From: Candidatus Magasanikbacteria bacterium RIFCSPHIGHO2_01_FULL_33_34
GTDB lineage: Bacteria > Patescibacteriota > Patescibacteriia > Magasanikbacterales > UBA922
Assembly (NCBI GenBank): GCA_001782825.1
Contig: MFPS01000009.1
Span: 31,770-95,769 of the forward strand
Reading direction: 5' to 3'
DNA: 64,000 nt
In this document: piece by piece, positions 689 through 62,643 of the stretch
Layout of the letters: every line of letters starts with the position of its first letter
How positions within the stretch are numbered: position 1 is the first letter of the stretch
Program-made: the position numbers and the translations under genes
The notes under the pieces: generated by a model
Seen by the model: the letters and a program-made list of their open reading frames with translations, nothing else
Told to the model about the DNA's origin: nothing
Database searches by the model: none

Positions 689-1555
689 TTATTTTGTATC
701 ATTATTAATTATTCCTCCGTCACCACAAATATCTTTAGCCTCTTTTAACAAATTTTCCAACTTTTTATCCTTTATACCCAAATTTTTCAATAAATAAATT
801 TTTTCTGGTAAATCCTGAACCAAAACTACATTATTGTCCAAAAGCATACGTTTTTCATTATCATTAATTGTAGTCAAACATGTCAATGGGTGTAAACCAG
901 TCTCTTCAATCAACACTTCCACCCCTCTACCTTTTGGATAATTCCAACCTATCATCTTCATTCCATTGCACTCACCATAAGCAATAGCATCTTGTGATAA
1001 TCGAGTATTTGTAATCACCCATGCTTTATGTATTTTATGGCACAATTTTTTATCATCCATTTTTTCCAAAATATCACGAAATCTAGAATGAACATACAAT
1101 GCTACTTTGACATCTGTTGACCGCGCTTGATCAGCATGAAATTTACACTCCATAAAATAATGCTTCTCATCATTTTTTGCCACGACATCAACTTCATGAT
1201 TTACACACTTACCTTTTACAACTACACCAACCTGAACATTGAAACCTTTTCTATTAAATATCTCACCAATAAATCTCTCAAAAGGAAATCCTGTAGGCCC
1301 TAAAGCAGTAATAGCCTTTTTTAAACTATAACGCGCAGCAATCGGTCTAGCATTTTCTCTTTTTAAAATTTTATAAGCCAAATTATATATATCTTGAGTT
1401 TTAGTTCCAGACACCAAATTTTTTTCTACTTCCAAAGCAATCTGTCTAGCAAGCGCTGGATAAGCACCAGAACGCATCAAAGATTTTTCAACTTTTGCTC
1501 TTATAAATGGCGCAGTATCACCAGATTCCTTTATTATATTGATTTTTTTATTCAT
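689..1555 (-). CDS. ATP-cone domain protein fused to an Mrr-like (PD-(D/E)xK) restriction-endonuclease catalytic domain
   Basis: The N-terminus (IIKESGDTAPFIRAKVEKSLMRSG...IAARYSL) matches the ATP-cone pattern seen in NrdR and RNR N-termini. The C-terminus (FERFIGEIF..GFNV..EVDVVAK..YFMECKFH) matches the Mrr_cat D...ExK layout. The start overlaps the upstream GT4 gene by 8 nt. Confidence 0.55.
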   Translation of the reverse strand: MNKKINIIKESGDTAPFIRAKVEKSLMRSGAYPALARQIALEVEKNLVSGTKTQDIYNLAYKILKRENARPIAARYSLKKAITALGPTGFPFERFIGEIFNRKGFNVQVGVVVKGKCVNHEVDVVAKNDEKHYFMECKFHADQARSTDVKVALYVHSRFRDILEKMDDKKLCHKIHKAWVITNTRLSQDAIAYGECNGMKMIGWNYPKGRGVEVLIEETGLHPLTCLTTINDNEKRMLLDNNVVLVQDLPEKIYLLKNLGIKDKKLENLLKEAKDICGDGGIINNDTK

Positions 1556-5404: not shown

Positions 5405-5806
5405 GCCATCTTGTTCATTATAAATGATCGCGTCACACTACTTGTGTGATGAGGAAAGTCCGAACTTCCTCTATTAAACCAGAAAAAATGTAGCGGGTAA
5501 TACCCGTCGGTGTACTGGTGACAGTACATTAGGGACAGTGCCACAGAGACTATACTAGTCCTAATTTATTAGGATAAAACGTGAAAAGAGTATGGAAGTT
5601 TTTATTCTTAAGACAAAAGCTACTATACTTCCTCCGCTATCCAGCGGGGGACGGTAAACCCTACATGGGAGAAAGAGCAGCGTTCTAATTTATTAGTTCG
5701 AAAAGTTAGCTCGTTTGAACTAAATAGCAATATTTAGTCTAGAGAAATGATCATTGCTTGATTTATCAAGTTACAAAATTCGGCTTACTGTAATGAACAA
5801 GATATA
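5405..5806 (+). ncRNA. rnpB: RNase P RNA (bacterial type A)
   Basis: Conserved P4 strands GAGGAAAGTCCGAAC (5') and ACAAAATTCGGCTTA (3'). Internal GGGTAATACCCG, CCACAGAGAC and GGTAAACCC motifs. P1 helix: 5408-5420 ATCTTGTTCATTA pairs with 5791-5803 TAATGAACAAGAT. Confidence 0.9.
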
Positions 5807-5834: not shown

Positions 5835-6087
5835 TATTTAATAAGTGCTGACATATTAACCTTTGCACGAACCCACTTCACACACGTGGAGCGCGTGGTG
5901 GCTCCTGACTAAATCGTAAACTCGGATTTCACACCTCGTCCGCCCAGTGAGTACACAAATCCCCGCCGTTTTAAGAAGGTATTATAAAACGGCTGGAATT
6001 ACTCCCTTGAGTTATAAAAAAGAAAAGGCACCCAGAGGGACAAAGTCCATGGGTACCCAGATGTGACCGAAGTCACGTAGTGGTTGT

Positions 6088-6942
6088 TTAGGCGGTGATG
6101 CCAAAACCTTCGAGTGTCACCTTCGCGACCCGCTTGCCAAGCTCCTCGTCCTTGAAGCGCTGGGCGTTGATGTACGGGCCAGAGCCGAAGAAGCCACTGT
6201 CGACCGAGAAGCCATGCACGGTACCGTTCATGATGGCCTCGAGCACTTCTTCCTCAGTCCAACTGTAGAGGTTGTTCTTCGGGTTGCGCACCTCTTCGGT
6301 CTGACCGACGAGATGGAAGAAGCTGGCTTCCTCCTTGAGATCGGTGAACACGAGCGGTTGGTTGTTGTAATACTTCCAGACGTTGCCGCGTTCGATGAGC
6401 TCGATCCACGACTCCTCGGCGCTGGTCGAACCGCCTTCCATGAACCGGACATCGTAAAACGGCCACGAAGAGCCGTCGTTACGACGCTGGTGCATGTGAT
6501 GGTAGTCGATACGGCCAATTGTCATCTCGTGCTCGCTACCGTCGTGCGGGAAGCGCACGCGGACCTTGTCCTGTTCCCAGACCTTGGTTTCCGGCAGATC
6601 GCCGAGGCGAACTTGCGGAGTGCGCAGTATGCCATCGGCTCCGCGGAGAGCGGCGTCGCGACGCTTCTCCTGGTCCTTGTCGACCATCTCGATTGACCAG
6701 TCGCCGGGAACGATGCGTCCGTCCGAGAGCCAGACTGACACCGCGCCCTTGCGATGATAGACGCCGGGCTGGTGCACGAGAACCCGAACGCGAGACTCGT
6801 AGATCACGGCATCATAGAAGCCACAAACAATACCCTTGGTGCCATCGGGGACATCATTGTAGATGTCCGTCCACGCACGGCGTTCGGGGTCAACCTTGAA
6901 GACAACTTCATCGCCAATCTGTAAAAGTTCAGTGAGTGTCAT
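6088..6942 (-). CDS. Hypothetical protein encoded by a strongly GC-rich (foreign-composition) gene; function unknown
   Basis: Uninterrupted ORF. Codon third positions are GC-rich, in sharp contrast to all neighbours. The likely start is MTLTELLQIGDEVVFKV at 6940-6942, because the upstream part of the tracked ORF is AT-rich. No recognizable family. Confidence 0.6.
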   Translation of the reverse strand: MTLTELLQIGDEVVFKVDPERRAWTDIYNDVPDGTKGIVCGFYDAVIYESRVRVLVHQPGVYHRKGAVSVWLSDGRIVPGDWSIEMVDKDQEKRRDAALRGADGILRTPQVRLGDLPETKVWEQDKVRVRFPHDGSEHEMTIGRIDYHHMHQRRNDGSSWPFYDVRFMEGGSTSAEESWIELIERGNVWKYYNNQPLVFTDLKEEASFFHLVGQTEEVRNPKNNLYSWTEEEVLEAIMNGTVHGFSVDSGFFGSGPYINAQRFKDEELGKRVAKVTLEGFGITA

Positions 6943-7199
6943 TTGTAATACCTTCTGTTTGGGTTGAGAATGTTCAAATTTTAAGACACAATAGTTCACC
7001 TGAACTAATTATACTAGCAGATAAATAACTCTATGTCAAGAAGTTGTATAGTTAACATCTAATAATAACAAAAAGTCTATATTTTAAGGCTTTTTCTTAG
7101 TTTAAGTTTTTGATTAAAAAATTTTCTTTTCCAAAAACTGAATACAAATTAGTCACAAAGCAAAGTGAAGCTAATATTTCAATTTTTAAATTTCCTTTC

Positions 7200-7287
7200 T
7201 GGTGCTCAGGAGAAGACTCGAACTTCCACAGGCATTACGCCCACAGGCCCCTCAAGCCTGCGTGTCTACCAATTTCACCACCTGAGC
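7200..7287 (-). tRNA. tRNA-Leu (anticodon GAG), class II with long variable arm, CCA encoded
   Basis: The reverse complement reads GCTCAGGTGGTGAAATTGGTAGACACGCAGGCTTGAGGGGCCTGTGGGCGTAATGCCTGTGGAAGTTCGAGTCTTCTCCTGAGCACCA. The 7-bp acceptor stem pairs. Anticodon stem CAGGC/GCCTG with loop TTGAGGG. T-arm GTTCGAGTC. Confidence 0.85.
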
Positions 7288-8846: not shown

Positions 8847-10478
8847 TTACAAACATTGATCCTTCTGTTTTAATGGGATTTTAAAGCCAAATTCTCCACC
8901 CTTACCAAGACCATCACTTTTTGCCCACACTTGTCCATTATGTTTTTCAACAAACTTCTTAGTCACATAAATTCCAAGTCCAGTACCGCCAACATTGGTA
9001 TTTTTAACATTTTTACCACGATAAAACTTTTGAAAAAAGTTTACTTCATCTGATTTATCAAAACCAATACCATTATCTTTAACTTTCACTTTTATATTAC
9101 TTCCAACAACTTCAGCTGATACATTGATTAAACCTCTTTCACTATACTTTATTGCATTATCAATAAAATTAAAAACTACATGACGAATTTTTTCATCATC
9201 CATACATACATCTAACTTTGTTTTGTCTGGCTTCCACACAATCTTTAGACCTTTGTCTTTTGCGCGTTGAGTCATTTCTTGGACTACACTTGTAATCAAT
9301 TCATTCATATCATGAATTTCAAAACTAAATTTAGTCCTATCTTGTTCAATTCTAGAAATATCCAAAAACTCATCAATCAATTTAACCAATCTTTCATTTG
9401 TTTCATCCATATCACCCAATATACTCTTTGTCTTCACAGTAATCTTCCCATATGCCCCATCTTGTATAAGCTCAATATATCCCTTGATAATAGATATAGG
9501 TGTACGAAGTTGATGAGAAGCAATAGAGAGAAATTCTGTCTTTTGACGATCTAATTCCTGTAGACGCAAATTGGCAGTCTCAAGTGATTTTGCAAGATGT
9601 AACAATTTTTCATTTTGTTGCACTTCTTTTCTAACACTTTGTATTAACAAAATACCAACACTTAAAATCAAAAGAAACAAAGAGCCTTTATAAAAAATAG
9701 TGACCAAATCATTAGAAGTTATCACTTCAAAAAGTACAGCTACAGATAAACCAATCACCAAAAATTCAGTAGAAACCACTTTTATATTCATCAACTTATG
9801 TCTTACAATCGCATAATATGTAAAAAATAAAAATGGTAAACTAAATGCCGCGCCAAATGTAACAAAATTAGAATTACCAAAAAAAGTAGGCAAAATTAAA
9901 CTAAAAATTAATATTAAAAAAATTGTTAAAAAAAATCCTATTAAAACAAAACTCAATGATCTGCGTTGTAATTTTGGTGATCTTAATATTTTCAGTATAA
10001 AAACAATTACACCTGACAAATTTAAACCAACCGCAGTCATTACAAACAAAAATATAAATGGTCCATTTATAACCCTAGATACCCTAACACCATTAAATTC
10101 CATTACTTCTTTAAAAATTAATGGTGTTAAAGTTAATATCGCAATAGTTATTACAAATGGTAACAAAAAAAATTTATAAAATTTAGGAATCATTTTTTTC
10201 TTTTCAGGGAAAACATAAAGTAAGTGAAAAGTAAAAAATGAATGCCAAACTGCCAAAAAAATTGTAGTTCTCAATAACCAAATCACTACATTCGGATCCA
10301 AAAATTTATAAGTTAAATAATTGAATCCATTATAAAGAATAGTAAAAATTGATAATAATAAAAATGCTTTGTTTGTAGTACTAGATTTATTATTAAAATA
10401 AATCAAAAAACCCAAAATAGCTATACCCGTTATAGCTAACCCTACGATAAATAAATCCGTATTTACAACCAAATTCAT
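8847..10478 (-). CDS. Sensor histidine kinase with an N-terminal domain of about 8-9 TM helices (HisKA + HATPase_c); no response regulator adjacent
   Basis: H-box SIASHQLRTPISIIKGYIELI. N-box and G-boxes NFIDNAIKYS, DNGIGF, GGTGLGIYVTKKFVEKHNGQVWAKS. Long hydrophobic N-terminal half. Confidence 0.85.
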   Translation of the reverse strand: MNLVVNTDLFIVGLAITGIAILGFLIYFNNKSSTTNKAFLLLSIFTILYNGFNYLTYKFLDPNVVIWLLRTTIFLAVWHSFFTFHLLYVFPEKKKMIPKFYKFFLLPFVITIAILTLTPLIFKEVMEFNGVRVSRVINGPFIFLFVMTAVGLNLSGVIVFILKILRSPKLQRRSLSFVLIGFFLTIFLILIFSLILPTFFGNSNFVTFGAAFSLPFLFFTYYAIVRHKLMNIKVVSTEFLVIGLSVAVLFEVITSNDLVTIFYKGSLFLLILSVGILLIQSVRKEVQQNEKLLHLAKSLETANLRLQELDRQKTEFLSIASHQLRTPISIIKGYIELIQDGAYGKITVKTKSILGDMDETNERLVKLIDEFLDISRIEQDRTKFSFEIHDMNELITSVVQEMTQRAKDKGLKIVWKPDKTKLDVCMDDEKIRHVVFNFIDNAIKYSERGLINVSAEVVGSNIKVKVKDNGIGFDKSDEVNFFQKFYRGKNVKNTNVGGTGLGIYVTKKFVEKHNGQVWAKSDGLGKGGEFGFKIPLKQKDQCL

Positions 10479-10529: not shown

Positions 10530-11588
10530 TTAATTAAAAATAATTTCTGGTTTCATACGTGAAGATAAAGCTGTCGGTTCTCCGCCATCACCAACCCTCA
10601 AAGTCATTGCTACATTCTTATTATCTGAAATTTTATAAATATTTTCTAAAATATGATATGAATCATTAATTAAATTGATATGCTCAAAAGAAAAAGATTT
10701 TAAATCATTATTTTTAACACGATCATGCAGATAAGGCAAAGCTGCCAAAGGATGAGCGCTTAAGCCCCATTTAGTAATAGTTAACCACAATTTTTGGACC
10801 AACATACCTGCTTTAACATAATTAGAATCTTTATCATCAACCAAAATAGATAAATAAAATGTACCCGTAGCATAAATTTTTGCATTTTCTTTTGCAATAA
10901 ATTTTGTCATACCCAAAATTTTAAATAATTGAGCTATGCGCCAAGTCTTTAAAAGTTTAAAAATAGCTAATTGGGGTGTTTCCAATTCCATAGTCTTGAC
11001 ATAAAGACCAGTTTTATTCTCTTTTTCTTGTGTTTCTGTCCAACAAATATTATCAAAAATTAAATCATGTAAAATCTTATTTTCTAACATTATCCTATCA
11101 TTATTACTAAAAACTTTTGATAATTTTTCTTTGTTTTCTTTGGATTCCACAAATAAAAGTGAAATACCTTCAAACTCATTCGCTATATTTTTTAATTCTT
11201 CCTTTTGTGCGATAGTAATAGTAATATCTTTATATTTTTTTCTATTAGTCGCTCTTTTTTTAATAAAATCACACAAATGACTTACTTTCTTTTCAGATTC
11301 TTTTAATGAAATTTTTGCTACTAAATTAGTATCACTACTAGATGGGAATAAATCAATACTAGCTTCATAACCACTAGATTCAGATAACAAAATAATATTT
11401 TGCAACACTGCGCCATGAGCAAAATAAGAACCTCTTTGTCTATAATTATAAATATAATTATCCCTATCTGGAATATTATATTGATATATAATATTTTCTT
11501 TTACCTCAAAACGCCACGGTTGCGAATTTTCACCAGATGGAGCATACACAGCCATTTCTAAAATATCTTTAATCAATTTATTATCCAT
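10530..11588 (-). CDS. Nitroreductase-fold (FMN-dependent) protein, long two-lobed form (SagB/McbC-type dehydrogenase-like or other extended nitroreductase)
   Basis: N-terminal AVYAPSGENSQPWRF matches the nitroreductase-family FMN-binding signature. At 352 aa it is larger than the classical 200-aa nitroreductases. Confidence 0.55.
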   Translation of the reverse strand: MDNKLIKDILEMAVYAPSGENSQPWRFEVKENIIYQYNIPDRDNYIYNYRQRGSYFAHGAVLQNIILLSESSGYEASIDLFPSSSDTNLVAKISLKESEKKVSHLCDFIKKRATNRKKYKDITITIAQKEELKNIANEFEGISLLFVESKENKEKLSKVFSNNDRIMLENKILHDLIFDNICWTETQEKENKTGLYVKTMELETPQLAIFKLLKTWRIAQLFKILGMTKFIAKENAKIYATGTFYLSILVDDKDSNYVKAGMLVQKLWLTITKWGLSAHPLAALPYLHDRVKNNDLKSFSFEHINLINDSYHILENIYKISDNKNVAMTLRVGDGGEPTALSSRMKPEIIFN

Positions 11589-11594
11589 AATATT

Positions 11595-13058
11595 TTAATT
11601 TTTTTCTTTTATTATATATTTATGTTTTGCCTTCAAATTTTTAAACTCTTCTGAGCCTTTTTCATAAATAATCAATTCTGGAAACACTCTTTTTCCCACA
11701 ATATGACGCAATTTTTTATATTCCATATTTATATCTTTCAAATATTTACTAAAAAGCTGTTGTATTTCTGATAAGTCAACATCAATTTTTTTACCTGAAG
11801 ACTCCAAATGAATTTCTAAAGCTTGGTGATTTTCTCCAAACACAGTTTTCATAAAAAATTTTCCACTAAAATATTGTATAATTTCATTATGTGTGAGTAC
11901 CTCTCTAATATGTTCTGGATATATATTCACTCCATACAATGTTGCGCTATAATTACTCCTACCAAACACAAGCAATACTGGCAAATGCCAATCATCAGTT
12001 TTTAATAAATCAAAATCACTATATTCTTGATCAATCTTCTCCGGAGACATGACCATACCAACATCATGTGTATTATATCTTACCAAAGGTACACCAGAGT
12101 CTGATGTGCAAACTAATTCATTCTTATAACTCTCAAAATATTTATTCCATGTGTGATATTGATAAATTCCTGGTACATGACTATTTTCAATTCCAAGCTT
12201 GCGTCTATCCAAATCCTTCAATTCAATTAATTGACGCAATCTAATTGTAAATGGAGTCTCATGCCCCATAAAACCCAAGTCTGTTGAACCATAAACATTA
12301 AAACCATTATTCTCAACATCATCAATACCTACTTTTTTATATAGCTTATTTCTCCATTTTTCAGGGAATGATTCTGCCGAAAACATAAATTTGATATTAT
12401 GCTCTTTCCAATTTATACTTTCAGATTCTTCATCACAAATAATATCCATCAAAGAAGGTGGATAACCAATCAAAATAGTCTGTTTATGATACTTTGATAA
12501 TTTTTTTATACTATTTAAAATATCTTTTTTATTCAAACCAGCAGTCACCAGACTACCTGACATACCAGTATCCATCAAATCCCTAATTGCATTTGAAGTA
12601 ATAATACCAGCCACATGCGCCCCCAAATAAAAACACACAATAAATAAAGTATCTTTTTCGTATGAAGAATAAAATTTCTTAAAAAAAAGTTTATGTAAAA
12701 GTGCTGTCCTTTTGTCATTAATAGTAAACCGAGGCCAAAAAACTGGTTCACCTGTAGTGCCAGAACTCTGAGATATAATCCCGCCTTTAGTCAATTTACC
12801 ATCCCAACACACTTCATTTAAACTATACTGTAAAATATAGTTTTTCTTATTTAGTAAAGGTAAATTTTTAAAATCACTAATTTTCTTTATTTTATCAGAA
12901 TTAATCTTATTTTTTTTTAGAAAATCTTTATACGCAGGCACTCTTCTAGATGCTTGTCTGAATAAATCTAATGCTCTAGTCTCTGCTAAAGATTGCCAAA
13001 AATAAAAATCTTTAGTTTTTAATTTCTTTTCTAAATAATTATAAGAAAACTCTTGCAT
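11595..13058 (-). CDS. Adenylate-forming enzyme of the PaaK/coenzyme-F390-synthetase/CapK clade (ANL superfamily)
   Basis: SQSSGTTGEPVFWP P-loop-like AMP motif about 95 aa from the N-terminus. PAYKDFLKKN...NLPLLNKKNY N-terminal layout typical of phenylacetate-CoA-ligase-like proteins. Confidence 0.6.
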   Translation of the reverse strand: MQEFSYNYLEKKLKTKDFYFWQSLAETRALDLFRQASRRVPAYKDFLKKNKINSDKIKKISDFKNLPLLNKKNYILQYSLNEVCWDGKLTKGGIISQSSGTTGEPVFWPRFTINDKRTALLHKLFFKKFYSSYEKDTLFIVCFYLGAHVAGIITSNAIRDLMDTGMSGSLVTAGLNKKDILNSIKKLSKYHKQTILIGYPPSLMDIICDEESESINWKEHNIKFMFSAESFPEKWRNKLYKKVGIDDVENNGFNVYGSTDLGFMGHETPFTIRLRQLIELKDLDRRKLGIENSHVPGIYQYHTWNKYFESYKNELVCTSDSGVPLVRYNTHDVGMVMSPEKIDQEYSDFDLLKTDDWHLPVLLVFGRSNYSATLYGVNIYPEHIREVLTHNEIIQYFSGKFFMKTVFGENHQALEIHLESSGKKIDVDLSEIQQLFSKYLKDINMEYKKLRHIVGKRVFPELIIYEKGSEEFKNLKAKHKYIIKEKN

Positions 13059-13066
13059 AATGAATA

Positions 13067-14671
13067 TTATTCTAAATCAGATATCTTTTTTTTGATTACA
13101 CTAACCAATTTTCCTTGATGAATAAAGTCTTTGATTTTTTCAAAATCATTACTCATCACTCTATCCTTATTATGACTTGAAACTAATTTTCTGACTTCTT
13201 TGTGCGCTAATGTCAAAATATTTCCTAACTTTTCAACCCCTCTTTCCTCTACTCCTTGACAGGCTGCTAACAACTCTACCGCCAAAACATATTCAATCTT
13301 TTCTTTTATATCCCTTGCTTTACGAGCAGCAATCAACCCCATGCTAACAACATCTTGATTTTCCCCATTGGATGGAATAGATTGAATTGAAACTGGATTA
13401 CACAAAGTTCTACATTCTGCCACTAATGATGTCGGAATATATTGAGAACCTTCAAACCCGCATGATAAACCTGCTTTTTTACCAGCCAAAAATGGAGTTA
13501 AACCTCTACTTCTAACACTATCCAAAAGTTTATTTAATCTACGTTCTGATAATACGGCTATCTCTGTTAAAGATATTGATAAGACATCCAAAGGTAAGGC
13601 TACTGTCTGTCCATGAAAATTTGCCCCTTGATAAGATATACCCAAGTCTGTAAAAAATAATGGATTATCGTTGGCAGAATTCATTTCTATCAATAAACTA
13701 TTTGTTATATAATCCAAAGCCCCACGCACAGCCCCAAGCACTTGTGGAGTTGCCCGCAAAGAATAAACATCTTGCACATGAATTCCTGAATCAACAACTT
13801 CTTTACCATTTTTTATTTTATCTTGTAAATCATTTTGAATTTTTTTCAACTTATCATTATTTATAACCAATTCACAATCTGCCAATAATTTTCTTAGATT
13901 ACTGGCTACAGAAATTTGTCCTGGATGAGCTTTCATCTCATGTCCTCTTGCTATAAATGGCTCCATAGAGGCATTTAGCGCGCCCATAGATATTGCTGAT
14001 ATTATTTCAGCAGATCGTACCAAATTCCAGGCATCATATAATTGAATTGCACCGACACCTGTCATCATCGTTGTCCCATTTATTAAAGCCAAGCCTTCTT
14101 TAGCTTTAAACTTTACTGGTATTACCCCTTCCTTTTTAAAAGCAAAAGCCGTCTTAACTTTTTTACCTTTATAAATAACTTCACCTTCACCCATCAATGC
14201 TAAAGCTATATGAGATGATGGTGTCAAATCACCACTTGCTCCGACAGATCCCCATTGAGGTACACATGGATGAATTCTTTTATTCAACATTTCTTTTAAA
14301 GTATTCACGGTTCCTATTCTTATAGCAGAACAACCCTTGGCAAATACATTCAACCTAAGCAACATCGCTGCTCTTACCTCTTCCTCAGAAAACAATGGGC
14401 CAACATTTGCAGAATGACTTCTTATCAAATTTTCTTGTAAATCAGTCTGATGTTTGCTTGGTATCAAAACTGAAACAAAAGGTCCAAAACCAGTCGTAAC
14501 TCCATAAACTACTTTTTCATCATTTACCCAATCTTCTAACATCTGTCTAGATTCTTTCATTTTTTTCTGACTTTCTTTTGAAAAATAAACTACTACCCCT
14601 TCTCTAACAACTTTTATAAAATTATCTAAACTCAAACTATCTCCATCTAATTTTATTTTATTATCACTCAT
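13067..14671 (-). CDS. Aromatic amino-acid ammonia-lyase/aminomutase family protein (HAL/PAL/TAL, MIO cofactor-forming)
   Basis: MIO-forming tripeptide context GSVGASGDLTPSSHIA plus YGVTTGFG and NGTTMMTG blocks characteristic of PF00221. At 534 aa. Confidence 0.8.
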   Translation of the reverse strand: MSDNKIKLDGDSLSLDNFIKVVREGVVVYFSKESQKKMKESRQMLEDWVNDEKVVYGVTTGFGPFVSVLIPSKHQTDLQENLIRSHSANVGPLFSEEEVRAAMLLRLNVFAKGCSAIRIGTVNTLKEMLNKRIHPCVPQWGSVGASGDLTPSSHIALALMGEGEVIYKGKKVKTAFAFKKEGVIPVKFKAKEGLALINGTTMMTGVGAIQLYDAWNLVRSAEIISAISMGALNASMEPFIARGHEMKAHPGQISVASNLRKLLADCELVINNDKLKKIQNDLQDKIKNGKEVVDSGIHVQDVYSLRATPQVLGAVRGALDYITNSLLIEMNSANDNPLFFTDLGISYQGANFHGQTVALPLDVLSISLTEIAVLSERRLNKLLDSVRSRGLTPFLAGKKAGLSCGFEGSQYIPTSLVAECRTLCNPVSIQSIPSNGENQDVVSMGLIAARKARDIKEKIEYVLAVELLAACQGVEERGVEKLGNILTLAHKEVRKLVSSHNKDRVMSNDFEKIKDFIHQGKLVSVIKKKISDLE

Positions 14672-14673
14672 AT

Positions 14674-15786
14674 TTAATTTTTAAAATAATTTAAAAGTTC
14701 TTGCCTTAATTCTTTATCATCATCTCCATAAATAGAAAAAATATCTGTCAAAGAAATTAAATAACGGCCACTGGATAATTTCTTTTCATTTAATATCTGT
14801 CTTACAATATACGCGCCAACTACTCCTGCTAATACTGCTGTACCCCCAACCTGAGGCCATGAATAAATATCCTTACCAACTCTTGAAACAGAATCCAACA
14901 TATTTGTATCCACATCATCTACTCCTATGAAATTAGTTACTACTTTAGCTATATCTTGTATTTTCAAATTATTTTTTTCTTTTGGTATCTTTTCCATCCT
15001 TTTATAAAAATCATTAATTTCATAATCTTCATCATATCTTTCAATATCAACAATTATTCCATCCCCATTATCCGTTATGCTAAATAATGGTATTTTATGT
15101 TTGGAAGCATACTCTCTCAAGACTATTTTTGCCGGCAAATCATCAACCTCCTCTACAATCAATTTAACCACTTCACCATCATTATGGATGAAATCATCAA
15201 CATTTTTATTATTCACTCCATTATCAAATTCTACAATATTTAAATATGGATCCATTTCATACAATTTCTCAGCCAAAGCTTGAGTCTTTTTCTTGCCAAT
15301 AGAATCAATGCCATTTATTATTCTATTTAAATTAGACAACCCTATTACATCCGCATCCGCTATATTTATTTTTTTAGGACCACCCTGTAAAACACAGATT
15401 CTTGCAATATTACTCCCAACACTTAACCCCGCAATAGCAATTGATGCATCTCTAAAATTACCTTGTTCTTTTTTGGTGATTAAATCCCTATTTCTTGCTG
15501 TACGAACTTCAAAAAATAAATCTTCTGATAAACACACTACACATAAATTCTTCCACGGTAAATAACAATAAATTTTTTCTTTACTGTATTTTGCTTTATA
15601 TTCTTTTTTTTTGCTCATCATTTCATCTATATTATCTCTTATACTTGGATTCCTTGCCTCACACAACTCATCTACTTGCAAATCAAAAAAATCTATAAAA
15701 TTAACATTATTATTTTTCAATTCTTCTAACTTTTTTTCATCCTTATAACTAATACACTCCAATCTATCTATCATACAAAGTATCAA
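14674..15786 (-). CDS. ThiF/MoeB/HesA-family (E1-like) nucleotide-binding protein with a Cys-containing N-terminal extension of about 120 aa
   Basis: Rossmann segment IAIAGLSVGSNIARICVLQGGPKKINIADADVIGLSNLNRI resembles the ThiF ATP-binding fold. The N-terminal region has CxxxxxxxCxxC. Start overlaps VKOR by 4 nt; stop abuts the lyase gene. Confidence 0.5.
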   Translation of the reverse strand: MILCMIDRLECISYKDEKKLEELKNNNVNFIDFFDLQVDELCEARNPSIRDNIDEMMSKKKEYKAKYSKEKIYCYLPWKNLCVVCLSEDLFFEVRTARNRDLITKKEQGNFRDASIAIAGLSVGSNIARICVLQGGPKKINIADADVIGLSNLNRIINGIDSIGKKKTQALAEKLYEMDPYLNIVEFDNGVNNKNVDDFIHNDGEVVKLIVEEVDDLPAKIVLREYASKHKIPLFSITDNGDGIIVDIERYDEDYEINDFYKRMEKIPKEKNNLKIQDIAKVVTNFIGVDDVDTNMLDSVSRVGKDIYSWPQVGGTAVLAGVVGAYIVRQILNEKKLSSGRYLISLTDIFSIYGDDDKELRQELLNYFKN

Positions 15787-16265
15787 AAACTAATTTTAAA
15801 TTTTTTTCTATTATAAATAAAATAAACACTATTGGTTATAAATATCATTGTAGAAAATAAAGCTGACAACATACAATAAAAACACAAATTCTCTATTACA
15901 AAGAATTGAAGATAAACCAAGCGTACAGAAAATAAAAATCCAAATATACTCATCGCATAGAGAATATTAAAATATTTTTTATTAACACCTGTTGAATATA
16001 TTAAAATAAATACAAACAATGAAAAATAATAACCAAAACCCAAAATAGAAAGTGGCAAACCAAATAACTTGGAATACTCACTGGTCAAAACATTACTACA
16101 ACTATTTACTTCATAAATATTACAAACAACTGAGCTACCAGACAATTGCTTTAGAGATAAATATGTAGTATCAATAAGACCAGCAAAAACAAATAACAAA
16201 ATAGCTATAATCCACCATAGTGGTATTACTTCTTTTTTTTGAAATATTTTTTTTAAAAATTCCAT
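15783..16265 (-). CDS. Vitamin K epoxide reductase (VKOR) family membrane protein
   Basis: Loop Cys pair (CNIYEVNSC) and TM CxxC (CFYC), with multiple TM helices, 160 aa. Confidence 0.7.
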   Translation of the reverse strand: MEFLKKIFQKKEVIPLWWIIAILLFVFAGLIDTTYLSLKQLSGSSVVCNIYEVNSCSNVLTSEYSKLFGLPLSILGFGYYFSLFVFILIYSTGVNKKYFNILYAMSIFGFLFSVRLVYLQFFVIENLCFYCMLSALFSTMIFITNSVYFIYNRKKFKISF

Positions 16266-16268
16266 AAA

Positions 16269-17984
16269 TTACATTTCTTTAACTGTACTTATACCCAAAA
16301 GATATAGGCCTTTGGTCATAACAATATGCACTGATTTTATTATCTCAATTCTAAACTTTTTATCCTCATTCTCTGCCTTTAGTATAGGCAATTCATGATA
16401 AAAATTATTAAATAATTGCGCAACTGAAAATAAATACTGAGCAATTTTTGATGGATCGTGATTATCACAAGCTATTTTTATTATATCATTAAACTCAGCT
16501 AATTTCATTAATAATTGCTTTTCAATACTATCAATATTTTTTGGCAACACATTTTTTTTCTTGAATAATTTTTTAAAAAAGTTTCTACTTCCTGCTTTAT
16601 CCAAAATACGATTGATCCTAGCCACAATATACATAAGATATGGCCCACTATCTCCTGACAAACTGACAGACTCTTCCAAATCAAAAACTATATCGTTGTG
16701 TACTCCAGTCTTGAGAAATGAATATTTGAGCGCGCCCAATGATACTTTTTCTGAAATGAATTCTTTATTTTTAATATCACTTTCCTCCATTATTCCCAAT
16801 ATTTTTTTATTGATATCATTTATCAGATCTTCTGCCAAAACTACTTGCCCACTCCTAGAGCTCATCTTTCCACTCTTTAAACTCACCCAACCAAAAGCCA
16901 AATGACTTTCTTTGCCACGAGAATTGGGTAAAGTTCGCTCTAATACTTGAAAAATAACTCTTAAATATTCTGTTTGTTCACGAGCAATAACATGAATAAT
17001 TTTATCTGGATTAAATTCCTTAAATTGTAGCTCTGCCAAAGCCAAATCTTTAGCTTCATAAGTTGGCAAACCCATACTACTTAGAAAAACCCTATCATGA
17101 AGACCTTGGGTACTACCTCTGTAAATTATCGCCCCTTCACTCTCTGCAAACAAATGTTCAATCAAGAAATTTTTTACTATGCCAATAGCTCTCTCAAAAA
17201 CTTCTGACTCAAAAAATAACCGATCAAAATGTGTATCCAATTTAATATAAATTTTATCAAAATATTCCAAACTCCAAGCTCTAGTCTCCCCATATATTTC
17301 TTTTATACTTTTATCTTGCTTATAGATTTTAGCATTGATATCTACTATTTCTGCTTTGGATTTTTCATCACTTTCAAATGCCTTGGCGCCATCAGCATAA
17401 GCCATTCCTAAAAACTGGACTTTTTCCTCAACAGACGAATGTTTGAGACTATCATATTTTTCCTTATTTCTAATAATTGCCCAAATAGCTTTGGCAATAT
17501 GCATCCCTACATCTCCTTGATAATTTACTCTCACAACATTATAACCACACATTTCCATTATACGCGACAAACTCTCACCCGTTATAGTTCCACGCAAATG
17601 CCCAATATGAAATGCTTTGTGTGTATTTGGTTGAGCATATTCTATCAAAACTTTTTTATTTTTTTTCTCTTGTTTTCCATAATCTGGTGTAATTGAGCCT
17701 AATATTTTTTCTGCAAGCAAACTACTATTTAAATAAAAATTAACATAAGGTCCAACAGCTTCTACTTTATCCAAAATATCAATCTCAGCTATTTCCTTCT
17801 GTAAATCTTCTACCAAAATTTTAGCAGATTCGGCTGGATTCAAATTCAATTTCTTGGCATAATTGAAACAAGCAAACGCAAACTCACCCATCTCTGGTTT
17901 GGGCGGTGTAACCAATTCAATACTACCAGTTACCCCAGCAGAATAAAGCGCTTTGATTAATTGTTGTTTCAGAGAACTCAACAT
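16269..17984 (-). CDS. argS: Arginyl-tRNA synthetase
   Basis: Class I HIGH motif PNTHKAFHIGHLRG, ArgRS N-terminal add-on domain and anticodon-binding C-terminus, 571 aa. Confidence 0.9.
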   Translation of the reverse strand: MLSSLKQQLIKALYSAGVTGSIELVTPPKPEMGEFAFACFNYAKKLNLNPAESAKILVEDLQKEIAEIDILDKVEAVGPYVNFYLNSSLLAEKILGSITPDYGKQEKKNKKVLIEYAQPNTHKAFHIGHLRGTITGESLSRIMEMCGYNVVRVNYQGDVGMHIAKAIWAIIRNKEKYDSLKHSSVEEKVQFLGMAYADGAKAFESDEKSKAEIVDINAKIYKQDKSIKEIYGETRAWSLEYFDKIYIKLDTHFDRLFFESEVFERAIGIVKNFLIEHLFAESEGAIIYRGSTQGLHDRVFLSSMGLPTYEAKDLALAELQFKEFNPDKIIHVIAREQTEYLRVIFQVLERTLPNSRGKESHLAFGWVSLKSGKMSSRSGQVVLAEDLINDINKKILGIMEESDIKNKEFISEKVSLGALKYSFLKTGVHNDIVFDLEESVSLSGDSGPYLMYIVARINRILDKAGSRNFFKKLFKKKNVLPKNIDSIEKQLLMKLAEFNDIIKIACDNHDPSKIAQYLFSVAQLFNNFYHELPILKAENEDKKFRIEIIKSVHIVMTKGLYLLGISTVKEM

Positions 17985-23746: not shown

Positions 23747-25321
23747 TTATACCAACAATGACCTACCCGTCATCTCTGGTGGTATATCTATTTCTAATAA
23801 CTCTAATATTGTAGGCGCTACATCTGCTAAAACTCCAACTGGTTTAATAAGACTCAAATCAGTATCTGGTGGGTCCCCTCCTGGACCAGCTTGGCCACGA
23901 TATTTATTTGCTATAATCAAAAATGGTACTGGATTAGTACTATGTTCTTTATTCATTTCTCCAGTCTGTATATTTAATATCTCTTCAGCATTACCATGAT
24001 CAGCTGTAATCAAAAATACACCATCTTTTGCCAAAACATGCTCAGCAATTGACCCCAAACCTTTATCTACAGACTCTACAGCAAGCAAAACTGCATCATA
24101 ATTTGATGTGTGTCCAACCATATCAGGCGATGCATAATTTAAAAAAATTACATCAAATCTATCTGCCTCAATTGCTTTTACAACTTCTTTTGTAATTTCT
24201 GGTGTAGACATTTCTGGAGCCAAATCATACTTTGCTACTTGTGGCGAAGCAATGATTTGTCTTTCTTCACCTTCAAAAGGTTCCTCAATTGTACCATTCA
24301 AAAAAAATGTAATATGAGCATACTTTTCTGTCTCGGCCACATGAAATTGTTTAAGCCCAGCATCACTTATAACTTGTGTCATACTATTGTGAACCACCAT
24401 TGGCGAAAAAGCGACAACTACAGGAATCTCTTTTTCATATTCTGTCATTGTTACAAAAAATAAATTTTTAATATATTCTCTTTCAAATTTTGCAAAAGAA
24501 GGCAATACAAATGCTTTTGTCAACTGACGAGCCCTATCTGGTCTAAAATTAAAAAAAACAACGCCATCATCATTTTTTATAACTGCTTTAGGTTTATTAT
24601 TAGAGCCTATTACTACTGGCACAAACTCTTCATCAAAAACTTCTTCTCTATATGATGTTTGTATAGCCTCCGAAACATCCTCATAAATTTTTCCTTGACC
24701 TTCTGCCATAGCTCTATAAGCTTTTTCAGTTCTATCCCACCGATTATCTCGGTCCATTGCATAATATCTACCAGATATTGTGGCTATTTCACCAATTTTC
24801 AACTCTTTCATTTTTTTCTGCATTTGCTCAACATAGTCTATACCTCCATTATACAAAGTATCCCTACCGTCCAATATTACATGCAAATATACTTTTTTTA
24901 ATTTATTTTTCTTTGCCAGCTCAAGCAATGCATAACAATGGGTCTGACTAGCATGAATATTCCCTGGACTAACCAAACCAATCAAATGAAGCGCGGATTT
25001 ATTTTGTTTTACATGTTCTGTAACTTTTTTGAAGGCATCATTTTCAAAAAAAGATTGATCACTAATAGATTTATTTATCCGAGGAAATGTTTGATAGTAT
25101 ACCCGACCAGCCCCAATATTGAGATGTCCAACTTCTGAATTACCCATCTCGCCGAATTGCAAACCAACCTCATTTCCAGAAGCATATAATGTCATGGCAG
25201 GATATTCTTTTATAAATTTATCGTAATTTGGAGTTTTGGCATGAAAAATAGCATTCCCCTTAGAATCAGGTGCGACCCCCCAGCCATCTATTATTGCCAG
25301 AACTACTGGTTTTGGTCTCAT
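23747..25321 (-). CDS. gpmI: 2,3-bisphosphoglycerate-independent phosphoglycerate mutase, paralog 2
   Basis: AIIDGWGV, SEVGHLNIGAGR and ITADHGNAEE iPGM blocks, 524 aa. Confidence 0.88.
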   Translation of the reverse strand: MRPKPVVLAIIDGWGVAPDSKGNAIFHAKTPNYDKFIKEYPAMTLYASGNEVGLQFGEMGNSEVGHLNIGAGRVYYQTFPRINKSISDQSFFENDAFKKVTEHVKQNKSALHLIGLVSPGNIHASQTHCYALLELAKKNKLKKVYLHVILDGRDTLYNGGIDYVEQMQKKMKELKIGEIATISGRYYAMDRDNRWDRTEKAYRAMAEGQGKIYEDVSEAIQTSYREEVFDEEFVPVVIGSNNKPKAVIKNDDGVVFFNFRPDRARQLTKAFVLPSFAKFEREYIKNLFFVTMTEYEKEIPVVVAFSPMVVHNSMTQVISDAGLKQFHVAETEKYAHITFFLNGTIEEPFEGEERQIIASPQVAKYDLAPEMSTPEITKEVVKAIEADRFDVIFLNYASPDMVGHTSNYDAVLLAVESVDKGLGSIAEHVLAKDGVFLITADHGNAEEILNIQTGEMNKEHSTNPVPFLIIANKYRGQAGPGGDPPDTDLSLIKPVGVLADVAPTILELLEIDIPPEMTGRSLLV

Positions 25322-25330
25322 ATATATACA

Positions 25331-26905
25331 TTAATCAAATAAGCATTCACCTGTCATTTCCTCAGGCTTATTAATATTCATTAGTTTTAACATAGTCGGC
25401 GCAATATCAGCCAATCGTCCTTTACGCATTTTTACACCTTCCATTCCCTTTTTAACTATAATAAATGGAACTAAATTAGTAGTATGTTCAGTGGAAACTT
25501 CACCAGTATCAGGATTTATCATTTCTTCAGCATTTCCATGATCAGCAGTAATTAAGACTTGTCCATTTTTATTTTCTACAACCTCATCAACTATTTTTTT
25601 AATTTGTTCATCTATAAATTGCACTGCTGTTTGAACAGCATTTAATTCTCCAGTATGTCCAACCATATCTGCATTTGGAATATTCATACAAACAAAATCA
25701 TATTTATCTTTTTGAATATATGAAACTACTCTATCAGTCAACTCTTCAGCATTCATAGTTGGTTTTTCTGCATAAGATCTAATCGAAATTGAATTTATTA
25801 CTTCTCGTTCTTCACCATTTAAAGCTTTAGAGTAACCACCATTTATAAAATAAGTAATATGAGCATATTTCTCTGTTTCAGATATATATAACTGCTTATA
25901 GTTCTCACCAATTGCTTTTGCAAGGGCATTGTCTACATCCGGACTTGGAAATGCCGTAAAAATTCCTGGCAAATCTGGTCCAAAATCAGTCATTGCCACA
26001 AAACGAGTATTTTGAGGAAATTTTGATCTTTTAAAAGCTCCAAGATTTTTCTTTTGAAAATCTGGTTGGACAAAAGCCTTCGTAAGTTGACGAGCTCTGT
26101 CACTTCTTGCATTTATAAAATAAATTGAATCATTATCATTAAATAACCCTACTGGTTTACCATTTTCAACAATAACAGTCGGCTCAATAAACTCATCAGT
26201 ATCCCCTCTTTTGTATGATTCTTTAATAGCATCTTCTGCGCTTGTTGCTATTCTACCTTGCCCTGAAACAATTGCTTCATATGCTTGCCTTGTTCTATCC
26301 CATATTTTATTTCTATCCATAGCATAAAATCTACCCATCAATGTCGCAATTTTCTCATGACTAAGTAAATGTTTTCTCAACTCTTCTAAATGCATCAATG
26401 CACTACTTGAAGCAGAATCACGACCATCAGTAAATAAATGCAAATATACTTTACCTTGACGCTCGCGACGAAAATATTCCAACATTGCAAAAAGATGATC
26501 AGGACATGCATGAGCACTAGAACCATCTGTCAACAATCCAAAAATATGAACAGCTCTATTATACTTTTTTACATGAAAAAGAGCTTGTTTAAATGCCTCA
26601 TTTTTAAAAAATGTTCCATCCTTAATTGATTCTGAAATCAAAACTAAATCTTGTTTTACAATTCTACCTCCACCAATATTCAAATGCCCAGCTTCAGAAT
26701 TGCCCGGTTGACCATCTCTGAGACCGACATCTTTACCAGATGCCAACAATTCTGTACTAGGATATTGTTTCATATATCCAAATATATTTGGGGCTGTCCT
26801 TTGGGTAATACCATTACCTTTTTTGGTCTCATCAGCCAATCCAAAACCATCTAATATAATCAATACGGTCGGTATATTTTTAATTGATGCATCTTTTTTA
26901 AACAT
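25331..26905 (-). CDS. gpmI: 2,3-bisphosphoglycerate-independent phosphoglycerate mutase, paralog 1
   Basis: LIILDGFGL, SEAGHLNIGGGR and ITADHGNAEEM, 524 aa. Directly upstream of paralog 2. Confidence 0.88.
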   Translation of the reverse strand: MFKKDASIKNIPTVLIILDGFGLADETKKGNGITQRTAPNIFGYMKQYPSTELLASGKDVGLRDGQPGNSEAGHLNIGGGRIVKQDLVLISESIKDGTFFKNEAFKQALFHVKKYNRAVHIFGLLTDGSSAHACPDHLFAMLEYFRRERQGKVYLHLFTDGRDSASSSALMHLEELRKHLLSHEKIATLMGRFYAMDRNKIWDRTRQAYEAIVSGQGRIATSAEDAIKESYKRGDTDEFIEPTVIVENGKPVGLFNDNDSIYFINARSDRARQLTKAFVQPDFQKKNLGAFKRSKFPQNTRFVAMTDFGPDLPGIFTAFPSPDVDNALAKAIGENYKQLYISETEKYAHITYFINGGYSKALNGEEREVINSISIRSYAEKPTMNAEELTDRVVSYIQKDKYDFVCMNIPNADMVGHTGELNAVQTAVQFIDEQIKKIVDEVVENKNGQVLITADHGNAEEMINPDTGEVSTEHTTNLVPFIIVKKGMEGVKMRKGRLADIAPTMLKLMNINKPEEMTGECLFD

Positions 26906-61260: not shown

Positions 61261-61887
61261 ATGAATCGCTATACCTTAGGGATACTGATACCTGTCGTCG
61301 TGGTAATCATTACGATTTGTACTTTTTCTAGTGATGATTACTCATCTGTTGTTGATATCAACTCACAACAGATCACAAAACCATCTGGACTACCAAACAA
61401 GTCCGCAACAAAAAAAATAAGATCAAAACGGTTTTTCCGATTTTTCTTTCGATACACAGCATCTCCCCCAAAAAATGATGTGTTAAAAGTATATATGGAA
61501 GAAGTTGCAGAAAACGAGATCAACTCGATTCTGGATACTGACTCCATAAGTGAAGAAAAAAGAGATTTTCTAGAAAAATCACAAGGATTAATTGCCCAAA
61601 AAAACTCCTTGCAAAAAGCTGAATTGGGCGCGTACGATGCCATTTCTGACCCAGACCAAAGAGAAGCTTTCAAGAAAGCTTTTCAACAAAAAATCATCGA
61701 TCTAGATGAAATCACCTACCAAATAGCTACTGGTAAGCTCACACAAGAAGAAGGTCGTGCAAAGAAAAAAGAAATCAACGACCGCTTCACCGATAAAGAG
61801 CAACTAGAAATACCAGAAGATGAACTTGTAAAAATAAAGCGAGTTCAAGTAAATAGTTTCATCAAAACCTATGAAAGGAGGGAGTGA
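61261..61887 (+). CDS. Hypothetical membrane-anchored protein (N-terminal TM, charged coiled C-terminal region)
   Basis: GGAG RBS-like sequence before the ATG. TM LGILIPVVVVIITICTF. Lies between the two secreted paralogs. Confidence 0.5.
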   Translation: MNRYTLGILIPVVVVIITICTFSSDDYSSVVDINSQQITKPSGLPNKSATKKIRSKRFFRFFFRYTASPPKNDVLKVYMEEVAENEINSILDTDSISEEKRDFLEKSQGLIAQKNSLQKAELGAYDAISDPDQREAFKKAFQQKIIDLDEITYQIATGKLTQEEGRAKKKEINDRFTDKEQLEIPEDELVKIKRVQVNSFIKTYERRE

Positions 61888-61977
61888 CAAGAGAGCGCAC
61901 GAGTGTTAAATTGTGTAGTGGCAGTACCCCACGCAGTATTGAGTAGTAAAACCAGTAATGACGAGAGGCACGCCACA

Positions 61978-62460: not shown

Positions 62461-62568
62461 CAAAGATCTGGCCCTAATCGCGACAAGCTCGCAATACGGG
62501 CCGATCTTACGGCGCGACAGCCCTAGCCAACACCAAGTACTGGTGTTGGCAGGGCTGTTTTTTTTATT
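62376..62568 (+). repeat. 190-bp direct repeat, copy 2
   Basis: See copy 1. Confidence 0.85.
62518..62565 (+). terminator. Strong rho-independent terminator, copy 2 (identical hairpin, T8)
   Basis: Same 17-bp bulged stem as 61112-61158. Confidence 0.8.
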
Positions 62569-62643
62569 TTTAAACTTTATATTTTTAAAAAATTAAATGA
62601 TTTCACTATTGACTTTTACTCAAAAATTGTATAGTGTATACTC

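Follow-up and report, generated by a model that had tools for sequence, protein, structure and literature searches.

What could four enzyme genes, set one against the next in a run of housekeeping genes, make in a member of the ultra-small Patescibacteria? The question is raised by a locus of Candidatus Magasanikbacteria bacterium RIFCSPHIGHO2_01_FULL_33_34, which lies at positions 10,530 to 15,786 of a 64,000-nucleotide stretch of contig MFPS01000009.1 (positions 31,770 to 95,769 of the forward strand; this whole stretch is called the window, and all positions are counted in it). The genes encode a ThiF-like protein, an enzyme of the 4-methylideneimidazole-5-one (MIO) type, a PaaK-like ligase and a long nitroreductase-fold (NTR) protein, and they are followed by a gene for a seven-transmembrane (7TM) histidine kinase (HK). 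An earlier note on this DNA had assigned the four domains ThiF, MIO, PaaK-like and nitroreductase from the letters of the sequence, and profile searches together with the located motifs confirm all four. We propose that these genes form a Patescibacteria-wide small-molecule pathway around a split oxazolone synthetase, which would be entered by way of a ligase and not of an acyltransferase. Judged from the sequences, we put the probability of this reading at about one half.

Oxazolone synthetases are known from other bacteria. Rv1355c, also named TrzS, converts N-acyl-tryptophan to N-acyl tryptazolone by an ATP-dependent cyclisation followed by an O2-dependent desaturation (PMC12856293). The same conversion is performed on N-acyl-tyrosine by OxzB of Pseudoalteromonas (bioRxiv 10.1101/2020.06.11.147165) and by TyzB/TyzC of M. 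tuberculosis (PMC10404671). In a similarity network of ThiF-like cyclases, the neighbours were acyltransferases and FDO proteins, and the TrzS subcluster was mainly from Actinomycetota (PMC12856293). The ThiF-like protein of the window covers positions 21-347 of the 722-position Rv1355c-family model NF005901 in NCBIfam with 232.8 bits, and the nitroreductase-fold protein covers positions 374-713 of the same model with 174.3 bits. Because the two proteins correspond to the N-terminal and C-terminal halves of Rv1355c/TrzS, the window appears to carry a split oxazolone-synthetase pair. Both of them also align with an annotated fusion of the Rv1355c family, which comes from a Mycolicibacterium plasmid.

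The ThiF-like gene lies on the minus strand at 14674-15786 if translation starts at a TTG, or at 14674-15774 if it starts at an ATG (366 residues), and its product matches PF00899 with E = 2e-20 in a Pfam profile search. Competing NCBIfam models, MoeB among them, score it far lower than the Rv1355c-family model does: ThiF proper reaches 69 bits and TcdA 46 bits. Its identity to the annotated fusion is 28% over 350 residues, and the alignment takes in the N-terminal extension of about 95 residues that is common to Rv1355c-family proteins. The extension, which the earlier note had described as rich in cysteine, is thus real, but the cysteines in it are not conserved in an alignment of 33 ThiF sequences and are no feature of the family. 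Invariant in that alignment are RNRN, SNLNR (residues 147-151), D211 and K216 of the ATP-binding Asp motif, ERxD and WPQ. The Asp of the ATP motif, which was mutated as D217A in TrzS, is conserved. The predicted structure (pLDDT 94) is nearest to AclA (9egb), followed by MoeB, PaaA, MccB and TcdA, and in a sequence search of the PDB the best match was TcdA. We regard the protein as a candidate ATP-dependent cyclodehydratase.

The nitroreductase-fold protein (10530-11588, minus strand, 352 residues) is reached by PF00881 and PF14512 only at its N-terminal signature, where the motif APSGENSQPWRF was located at residues 16-27. Across 63 flavoprotein homologues, APSxxNxQPW (residues 16-25) and R112/R116 (RxxxR) are kept. 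Besides the Rv1355c-family model, the protein covers positions 325-660 of the ThiF-FDO model NF011424 with 185 bits and scores 120 bits against the Acg family; no SagB-type family is among its NCBIfam matches. These features make it a candidate for a long, single-chain flavoprotein of the FDO type, namely a desaturase dependent on flavin mononucleotide (FMN).

We then asked how far the genes travel together. The ligase alignment was used to scan one genome for each GTDB species, which gave 259 confirmed loci; 80 of these were fetched. Synteny was counted on the 41 loci that had 4 kb or more upstream and 5 kb or more downstream. The ligase gene is accompanied by a ThiF gene in 40 of the 41 and by a flavoprotein gene in 34, one NTR-ThiF fusion being included in both counts, and by a HisKA_7TM kinase gene in 39. 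The fetched loci carry at least 14 candidate-phylum names, including Magasanik-, Yanofsky-, Doudna-, Wolfe-, Woese-, Roizman-, Andersen-, Nealson-, Lipton-, Adler-, Kaiser- and Uhrbacteria and Saccharibacteria, and the gene order is shuffled among them. The synteny of ThiF, ligase, flavoprotein and kinase thus holds across phyla, with the MIO enzyme as the variable member. What the earlier note took for an unexpected module of one reduced genome is widespread in Patescibacteria.

In several genomes the same enzymes are joined in one chain. We found a 1242-residue ELFV-PaaK-ThiF fusion (P0318), ELFV-PaaK fusions (P0396; L082:6891-9467), PaaK-ThiF and ThiF-PaaK fusions (P0287, P0294), an 837-residue PaaK-NTR fusion (P0004, L001:8001-10514) and an NTR-ThiF fusion (L061:9491-11722), ELFV being an amino-acid dehydrogenase family. 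Each pair of the enzymes thus occurs fused in some genome. These fusions are strong evidence that the module enzymes form a single pathway, and the triple fusion has its domains in the order dehydrogenase-ligase-ThiF, in agreement with the steps proposed below. The idea in the earlier note of a self-contained, aryl-acid-derived metabolite pathway tied to the kinase fits both the cross-phylum synteny and the fusions.

While going through these loci, we noticed that several public metagenome-assembled genomes (MAGs) titled uncultured Gammaproteobacteria or Pseudomonadales (L007, L008, L040, L042, L046, L056, L060, L061, L064, L079, L080, L084), and one contig in a bin named Jordarchaeaceae archaeon (L089), carry this module. 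In these records, typical Patescibacteria synteny surrounds it, and the taxonomic labels or the binning look wrong.

In the window, spacing says little about linkage. The gaps measure 2 nt between the ThiF-like and MIO genes, 8 nt between the MIO and ligase genes, 6 nt between the ligase and nitroreductase genes and 51 nt between the nitroreductase and kinase genes. Upstream of the ThiF-like gene lie VKOR (15783-16265) and then the ArgRS gene (16269-17984), and beyond the kinase a bactofilin gene and then one for a DAGK-like kinase continue the string, all on the minus strand. In the map of open reading frames (ORFs), the whole string ValRS-TyrRS-ArgRS-VKOR-...-DAGK is co-directional and near-gapless, so spacing alone defines no operon here, and the linkage rests on synteny and on fusions elsewhere. 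Of the tight packing that the earlier note had stressed, the small gaps between the four genes stand, but the 4-nt overlap with VKOR needs the TTG start (the public record, P0121, puts the ThiF start at the ATG at 15774, which leaves a gap of 8 nt) and the packing is not special in this string. Scans of the locus for promoters and terminators gave signals at or under shuffle expectation. In GenBank, four of the five genes (the four enzymes and the kinase) are labeled hypothetical protein, and the MIO gene is labeled tyrosine 2,3-aminomutase. The rest of the window is housekeeping, as the earlier note had it: glycolysis genes, RpoB/C, EF-Ts, S2, PNPase, UvrA and aminoacyl-tRNA synthetases.

With such surroundings, the four genes might be chance neighbours, such as a remnant of a hut operon, an aryl-acid catabolic route through a CoA ligase, a ThiF protein of thiamine, molybdenum cofactor or tRNA-ct6A metabolism, or an anti-phage E1 system. 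The gapless housekeeping string would suit this idea, as would a subfamily model of histidine ammonia-lyase (HAL) that the MIO enzyme exceeds and the TcdA hit of the ThiF-like protein in the PDB. The four-way synteny across phyla, in changing contexts, and the multiple fusions speak against it, and together they largely refute it. The hutH, TcdA, ThiF, MoeB and PaaK equivalog cutoffs all lie above the scores of the window proteins, hutU and hutI are absent, and so is the Glu motif that we take to be specific to HAL. In PADLOC only generic E1 models match, with at most 38 bits. We therefore consider chance adjacency extremely improbable.

Each of the candidates under this heading was also tried by itself and rejected. 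As to a hut remnant, the hutH score is 526.9, below the 539.15 cutoff, and neither urocanase nor imidazolonepropionase was found in the Pfam-scanned window ORFs; these scans, which equally gave no YcaO, covered ORFs of at least 120 residues, with three short ORFs at 61261-63153 outside them. The absence of hutU, hutI and YcaO had been stated in the earlier note and is borne out. A housekeeping role of the TcdA, ThiF or MoeB kind was dropped on scores that miss the equivalog cutoffs by wide margins (46.2 against 304 for TcdA). For an anti-phage E1 or Cap2-type system, the PADLOC E1-E2 matches of at most 38 bits lie on the Rossmann core only and the other three enzymes have no match.

The earlier note had also seen in the ThiF-like and nitroreductase proteins the partners of a peptide-modification system, that is, of ribosomally made peptides that carry post-translational modifications (RiPPs), with the first as an E1-like protein or RiPP recognition element partner and the second as an azoline dehydrogenase of the SagB/McbC type. 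The idea of a cyclodehydration followed by an oxidation is chemically apt, but the nearest system is the oxazolone synthetase (OxzB, TyzBC, TrzS) and not a RiPP pathway of the thiazole/oxazole-modified microcin (TOMM) class. TOMM systems (McbBCD, with E1-like/YcaO and SagB-type proteins) share with the module the ATP-dependent cyclodehydration of an amide and the subsequent FMN-dependent oxidation, and the top structural match, AclA, could be counted on the same side. The module differs from them in that a YcaO protein is absent from the window, as are a precursor peptide and a SagB-type signature, and in that its substrates are probably derivatives of free amino acids, which its partner enzymes use. 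Within the operon the gaps measure 2-8 nt, and a comparison of 79 loci showed no conserved family of small ORFs. The N-terminal extension of the ThiF-like protein is common to TrzS-type enzymes, which act on small molecules. Peptide tailoring is thus very improbable, and we return to the split oxazolone synthetase.

If the synthetase pair acts on an N-acyl amino acid, the remaining two enzymes, whose genes lie between those of the cyclase and the oxidase, may account for the acyl part. The slot directly upstream of the ligase gene is occupied by an ELFV-family amino-acid dehydrogenase in 19 of the 41 loci, by a MIO enzyme in nine, by a class I/II aminotransferase in four and by a class IV aminotransferase in one, and no such enzyme was detected in nine; the sum is 42 because one locus has both a MIO enzyme and an ELFV dehydrogenase nearby. 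MIO and ELFV enzymes swap within one synteny frame, TyrRS-ArgRS-module-HK-bactofilin-DAGK. NCBIfam classes the dehydrogenases as ScyB-like (a tryptophan dehydrogenase; 247-266 bits), the class IV enzyme as a branched-chain aminotransferase (BCAT) of the IlvE type, and the MIO enzymes in other lineages as a tyrosine ammonia-lyase (TAL) resembling FlxA (L014, 619 bits) or as similar to phenylalanine ammonia-lyase (PAL). By these assignments, MIO enzymes have entered the slot on at least three occasions, each from another clade (SgTAM-like, FlxA-like TAL and PAL-like). What the slot enzymes have in common is that they turn an amino acid, aromatic or branched-chain, into a carboxylic acid, which is an arylacrylate or a 2-oxo acid. 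Arylpyruvate in its enol form is nearly an isostere of cinnamate.

The MIO enzyme of the window (13067-14671, minus strand) matches PF00221 with E = 1e-165 and has the Ala-Ser-Gly triad in GASGDL at residues 144-149. It scores 541.7 on TIGR03832, the model of tyrosine 2,3-aminomutase (cutoff 501), and likewise exceeds the cutoff of the HAL subfamily model PRK09367 (535.9 against 524). The best match in the PDB is the tyrosine aminomutase SgTAM (SgcC4) with 422 bits, and HALs follow at about 275-307 bits. Y63 (catalytic), H93 and Y415 of SgTAM align with Y56, H86 and Y411, and we take H93 and Y415 to be contacts of the substrate phenol. In HALs the corresponding motif is NQEDH (with Glu414); the enzyme of the window reads NQDV, so the HAL-specific Glu is absent. 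Taken together, the enzyme is an SgcC4-like aromatic amino-acid ammonia-lyase or aminomutase, probably Tyr-specific. We infer that it supplies 4-coumarate. Because its slot-mates across the loci all yield carboxylic acids, we favour a lyase that feeds the ligase over a mutase.

Could it nevertheless be a true tyrosine 2,3-aminomutase? The ligase would then activate beta-tyrosine, as SgcC1 acts after SgcC4 in C-1027 biosynthesis, and the product would be a heterocycle derived from a beta-amino acid. The TIGR03832 equivalog score, the GenBank name, and SgTAM as the nearest solved structure with its three aligned residues all conserved would agree with this. The aminomutase call of the hidden Markov model is not discriminating, however, as the HAL subfamily model passes too. 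SgTAM Glu71, probed by the E71A mutant structure 3kdy, aligns with P64, and the inner loop reads TGFGPF instead of TGYGEM. In the sister loci the slot is filled with ScyB-like dehydrogenases, BCAT, FlxA-like TAL and PAL-like lyases, none of which makes beta-amino acids. The likeness to SgcC4 of the C-1027 enediyne pathway, the closest solved homologue with the catalytic Tyr and the presumed phenol-binding His and Tyr conserved, is thus set against the Glu71-to-Pro change and a gene context that favours lyase-type deamination, and we hold a beta-tyrosine product to be improbable.

The ligase (11595-13058, minus strand) gave no Pfam match, AMP-binding included, and only weak matches to PaaK and FlxY models in NCBIfam (42.3 bits on the PaaK model TIGR02155, cutoff 646.3). 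Its AlphaFold2 model (pLDDT 86) nonetheless has the two-domain PaaK fold. The first Foldseek neighbours are BT_0428 and PaaK1/2 (E = 3.5e-23 and TM 0.65-0.72 against BT_0428 and PaaK), and NatL2 and ClxA, then HCL and GH3, come after them. Adenylation motifs were located at SSGTTGEP (residues 98-105), YGSTD, RYNTHD and GRSN, with a near-invariant C-terminal K478/K480. Clustered at 50% identity, the family has about 449 clusters that reach E <= 1e-30, and its named members are almost all Patescibacteria.

NatL2 (NatL2/AjiA1, of benzoxazole pathways) and ClxA are PaaK-family ligases that form ester or amide bonds without CoA, and GH3 enzymes are acyl-acid amido synthetases. They share the fold and the adenylation motifs with the ligase and stand among its top structural neighbours, and their functions give a precedent for an aryl-acid adenylate that is captured by an amine or hydroxyl instead of CoA. 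Identity to them is only 16-19%, and the Patescibacteria clade is separate and about 50 residues longer. The ligase belongs to a Patescibacteria-specific clade of the PaaK family and is a candidate ATP-dependent N-acyl-amino-acid (amide) synthetase, which would replace an acyl-CoA N-acyltransferase. No GNAT or other acyltransferase recurs among the unassigned ORFs of the 79 loci, and none is present in the operon of the window.

From homology and gene context, we can propose a route of four steps. In the first, the MIO enzyme would deaminate L-tyrosine to 4-coumarate; elsewhere a ScyB-like dehydrogenase or an aminotransferase would make an aryl- or branched 2-oxo acid. In the second, the ligase would adenylate the acid (to coumaroyl-AMP) and couple it to an amino acid at its amino group, giving an N-acyl amino acid, with the transfer either direct, as in NatL2, ClxA and GH3, or via CoA; this step would stand in for the acyl-CoA N-acyltransferases OxzA, TyzA and TrzA. 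The ThiF-like enzyme would then adenylate the free carboxylate, so that the amide oxygen could close the ring to an oxazol-5(4H)-one. In the last step, the flavoprotein would desaturate the C-alpha/C-beta bond to give a conjugated 4-ylidene oxazolone. In this reading the kinase is functionally tied to the module, and it may sense the product or control its synthesis. To our knowledge Patescibacteria, with their reduced metabolism, lack fatty-acid metabolism, and for this reason an ATP-driven route that takes both halves from amino acids would make sense.

The proposed route resembles OxzAB of Pseudoalteromonas rubra and TyzACB and TrzAS (Rv1355c/Rv1356c) of M. tuberculosis in its ThiF-like ATP-dependent cyclase and FDO-type oxidase, adjacent or fused, in the N-terminal extension of the ThiF protein and in the use of aromatic amino acids as building blocks. 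The authors who described those systems suspect a role in signalling or stress and point to a neighbourhood of signalling genes. Only those systems have an acyltransferase, whereas the module has a PaaK-family ligase and an amino-acid-deaminating enzyme, its cyclase and oxidase are usually separate genes, and a 7TM kinase is near-constant. The known hosts are Proteobacteria and Actinomycetota, those of the module Patescibacteria. The pairing of a tyrosine ammonia-lyase with an aryl-acid-activating ligase is also seen in FlxA/FlxY, which make the flexirubin starter, and in TAL/4-coumarate ligase pairs for the chromophore of photoactive yellow protein. The proteins of the window score weakly on the FlxA and FlxY models of NCBIfam, far under the cutoffs, and the module comes without polyketide or fatty-acid machinery and without photoactive yellow protein.

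A stand-alone ThiF protein of the same clade, 33% identical to that of the window, was also found on a Streptomyces plasmid (NZ_CP109501.1, L087:4710-6484). Its gene is translationally coupled to a GNAT-family gene and no FDO is annotated nearby. This arrangement may represent another variant, found in Streptomyces, of the oxazolone-type logic.

Several findings weigh against an oxazolone product. The N-acyltransferase, which is the defining partner of the known oxazolone systems, is absent from the operon, and its substitution by the ligase is what we infer. The halves reach 232.8 and 174.3 bits where the Rv1355c equivalog cutoff is 476, and the ligase scores 42 bits against a PaaK cutoff of 646. 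A flavoprotein was not detected nearby in 7 of the 41 loci. In a BLAST alignment to the Rv1355c-family protein, the arginine near position 540 pairs with a Cys; this comparison with the mutated TrzS residues R540 and Q651 is approximate, as the reference is the plasmid-borne family member and falls short of an exact mapping of R540. The solved structure nearest to the ThiF component is AclA, for which our searches gave no function. The MIO enzyme exceeds the aminomutase cutoff and is nearest to SgTAM, so that beta-tyrosine could be its product instead of coumarate. Many Patescibacteria live with little or no oxygen, and the known FDOs of this type are O2-dependent.

We also asked whether the kinase belongs to the module. 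The gene of the window (8847-10478, minus strand, downstream of the four enzymes) encodes HisKA_7TM, HisKA and HATPase_c domains (PF16927, PF00512, PF02518), and Pfam finds only the membrane region as the sensor part of this polytopic kinase. In 27 of the 41 loci it is the last gene of the tight co-directional chain. A reverse look-up from a kinase homologue returned RR-ELFV-PaaK-ThiF-NTR-HK, in which RR is a response regulator, and a short contig binned as an archaeon reads ELFV-PaaK-methyltransferase-HisKA_7TM. Only 19 of the 41 loci have a response regulator nearby, and neither a response regulator nor a second kinase was found within the 64-kb window.

A reverse test was anchored on the DAGK gene, with 80 metagenomic loci fetched, 32 of which have at least 8 kb upstream. 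In this Magasanik-type frame the kinase is present in 30 of the 32 loci but the module in only nine, and in 21 the kinase occurs without the module; co-occurrence is thus not reciprocal. Since the kinase is found in 30 and the module in nine of the same frames, the kinase is the backbone gene in this lineage and the module an accessory insert beside it. In module-less loci (L100, L105, L111, L118, L125, L126, L133, L141, L155, L166), variable genes lie about 1.2-3.6 kb upstream of the kinase. The slot between ArgRS and the kinase then holds MazF, methyltransferase-like proteins of about 400 residues, which lie directly upstream of the kinase, DHODH, a pyruvoyl-type protein resembling histidine/arginine decarboxylase, an EamA transporter or an ATP-grasp enzyme. 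Accessory small-molecule genes may have a hot spot here, beside the kinase.

In several module-bearing lineages, a gene for an alpha/beta-hydrolase or an S-adenosylmethionine-dependent methyltransferase lies between the biosynthetic genes and the kinase gene, and an M19 dipeptidase gene appears in two (L077:10641-11546, L116, L137, L167, L169, L056, L066, L082; L028:8487-9221, L024, L069; L089:2095-2628). These are possible tailoring or product-hydrolysing enzymes.

A signal-plus-receptor circuit could explain why the kinase is there. By analogy, the module would produce an oxazolone-like autoinducer that diffuses, with the 7TM kinase next to it as the dedicated receptor, an idea that would complement the oxazolone pathway and not replace it. 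It would fit the kinase beside the module in 39 of the 41 loci across phyla, usually at the end of the chain, the reverse look-up that lands again on ELFV-PaaK-ThiF-NTR-HK, and a polytopic sensor in which Pfam detects the membrane region only. N-acyl oxazolones have also been likened to acyl-homoserine lactones, and trzAS adjoins genes of cyclic di-GMP metabolism (PMC12856293). As in LuxM/LuxN, CqsA/CqsS and AgrBD/AgrC, a gene for a membrane-embedded sensor kinase follows directly downstream of the biosynthetic genes; here the enzymes are unrelated to those systems, and the kinase often occurs without the module. Against such a circuit stand the Magasanik-type frame, where unrelated genes otherwise fill the slot, the scarcity of response regulators near the module, and the lack of an exporter. 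We consider the circuit unlikely.

The backbone/insert pattern, by analogy with orphan quorum-sensing receptors, would fit a receptor with optional producers. It fits equally well a kinase that does no more than regulate the genes upstream of it, whatever these may be, or share a transcript with them. The kinase as a possible sensor, suggested in the earlier note, is thus tied to the module by its adjacency in 39 of 41 loci, but it is not module-specific and persists in relatives without the module. A more specific form of the idea, in which the module makes a conjugated, reactive oxazolone (e.g. a 2-(4-hydroxystyryl)-4-ylidene-oxazolone) as a signal between cells or between episymbiont and host, the 7TM kinase reads it and kinase-only strains are listeners, is more doubtful still.

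Some other features of the window deserve mention. At 5900-6950, an island of about 1 kb has 54-66% GC in a genome of about 30% GC and lies between the RNase P RNA (5412-5803) and a tRNA (7203-7287). An ORF in it (6088-6942, minus strand) encodes a normal-looking protein of 284 residues, which has no Pfam, PHROG, PADLOC or Rfam match. The gene is missing from every related locus fetched and was probably acquired recently from a foreign source, at a site next to a tRNA. Cofactor-independent phosphoglycerate mutase is present as two tandem paralogues of 524 residues each (23747-25321 and 25331-26905, minus strand), with enolase, PGK and GAPDH as neighbours, a redundancy unusual for a reduced genome. 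A protein of 1983 residues (45862-51813, minus strand) has RCC1-like beta-propeller repeats, repeated domains of the purple-acid-phosphatase-N/FN3 type and an Ig-like domain, and is probably a surface or adhesion protein. At 689-1555 (minus strand), an ATP-cone and an Mrr-type restriction-endonuclease domain occur in one protein.

Full-text literature searches that combined Patescibacteria or the candidate phyla radiation (CPR) with oxazolone, ThiF, nitroreductase or phenylacetate-CoA ligase, and searches for HisKA_7TM, returned no description of the module. The core chemistry of oxazolone synthetases is already known; what is new lies in the entry enzymes, in the host clade and in the kinase as a constant partner. 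Patescibacteria are regarded as almost devoid of secondary metabolism and as lacking an acyl-CoA pool. If the proposed pathway is right, it would be a rare case of specialised metabolism in these bacteria, with amino acids as the sole carbon source and ATP as the sole activator. It would extend oxazolone biosynthesis well past Proteobacteria and Actinomycetota and give oxazolone chemistry a new entry route, with a ligase for the acyltransferase. The physiological role of oxazolones is an open question (PMC12856293), and the near-constant pairing with a membrane kinase offers a concrete, testable handle on it. Were the signalling idea also true, the module and its kinase would be, as far as our literature searches show, the first chemical signalling circuit described for Patescibacteria, and would give bacterial oxazolones their first physiological role.

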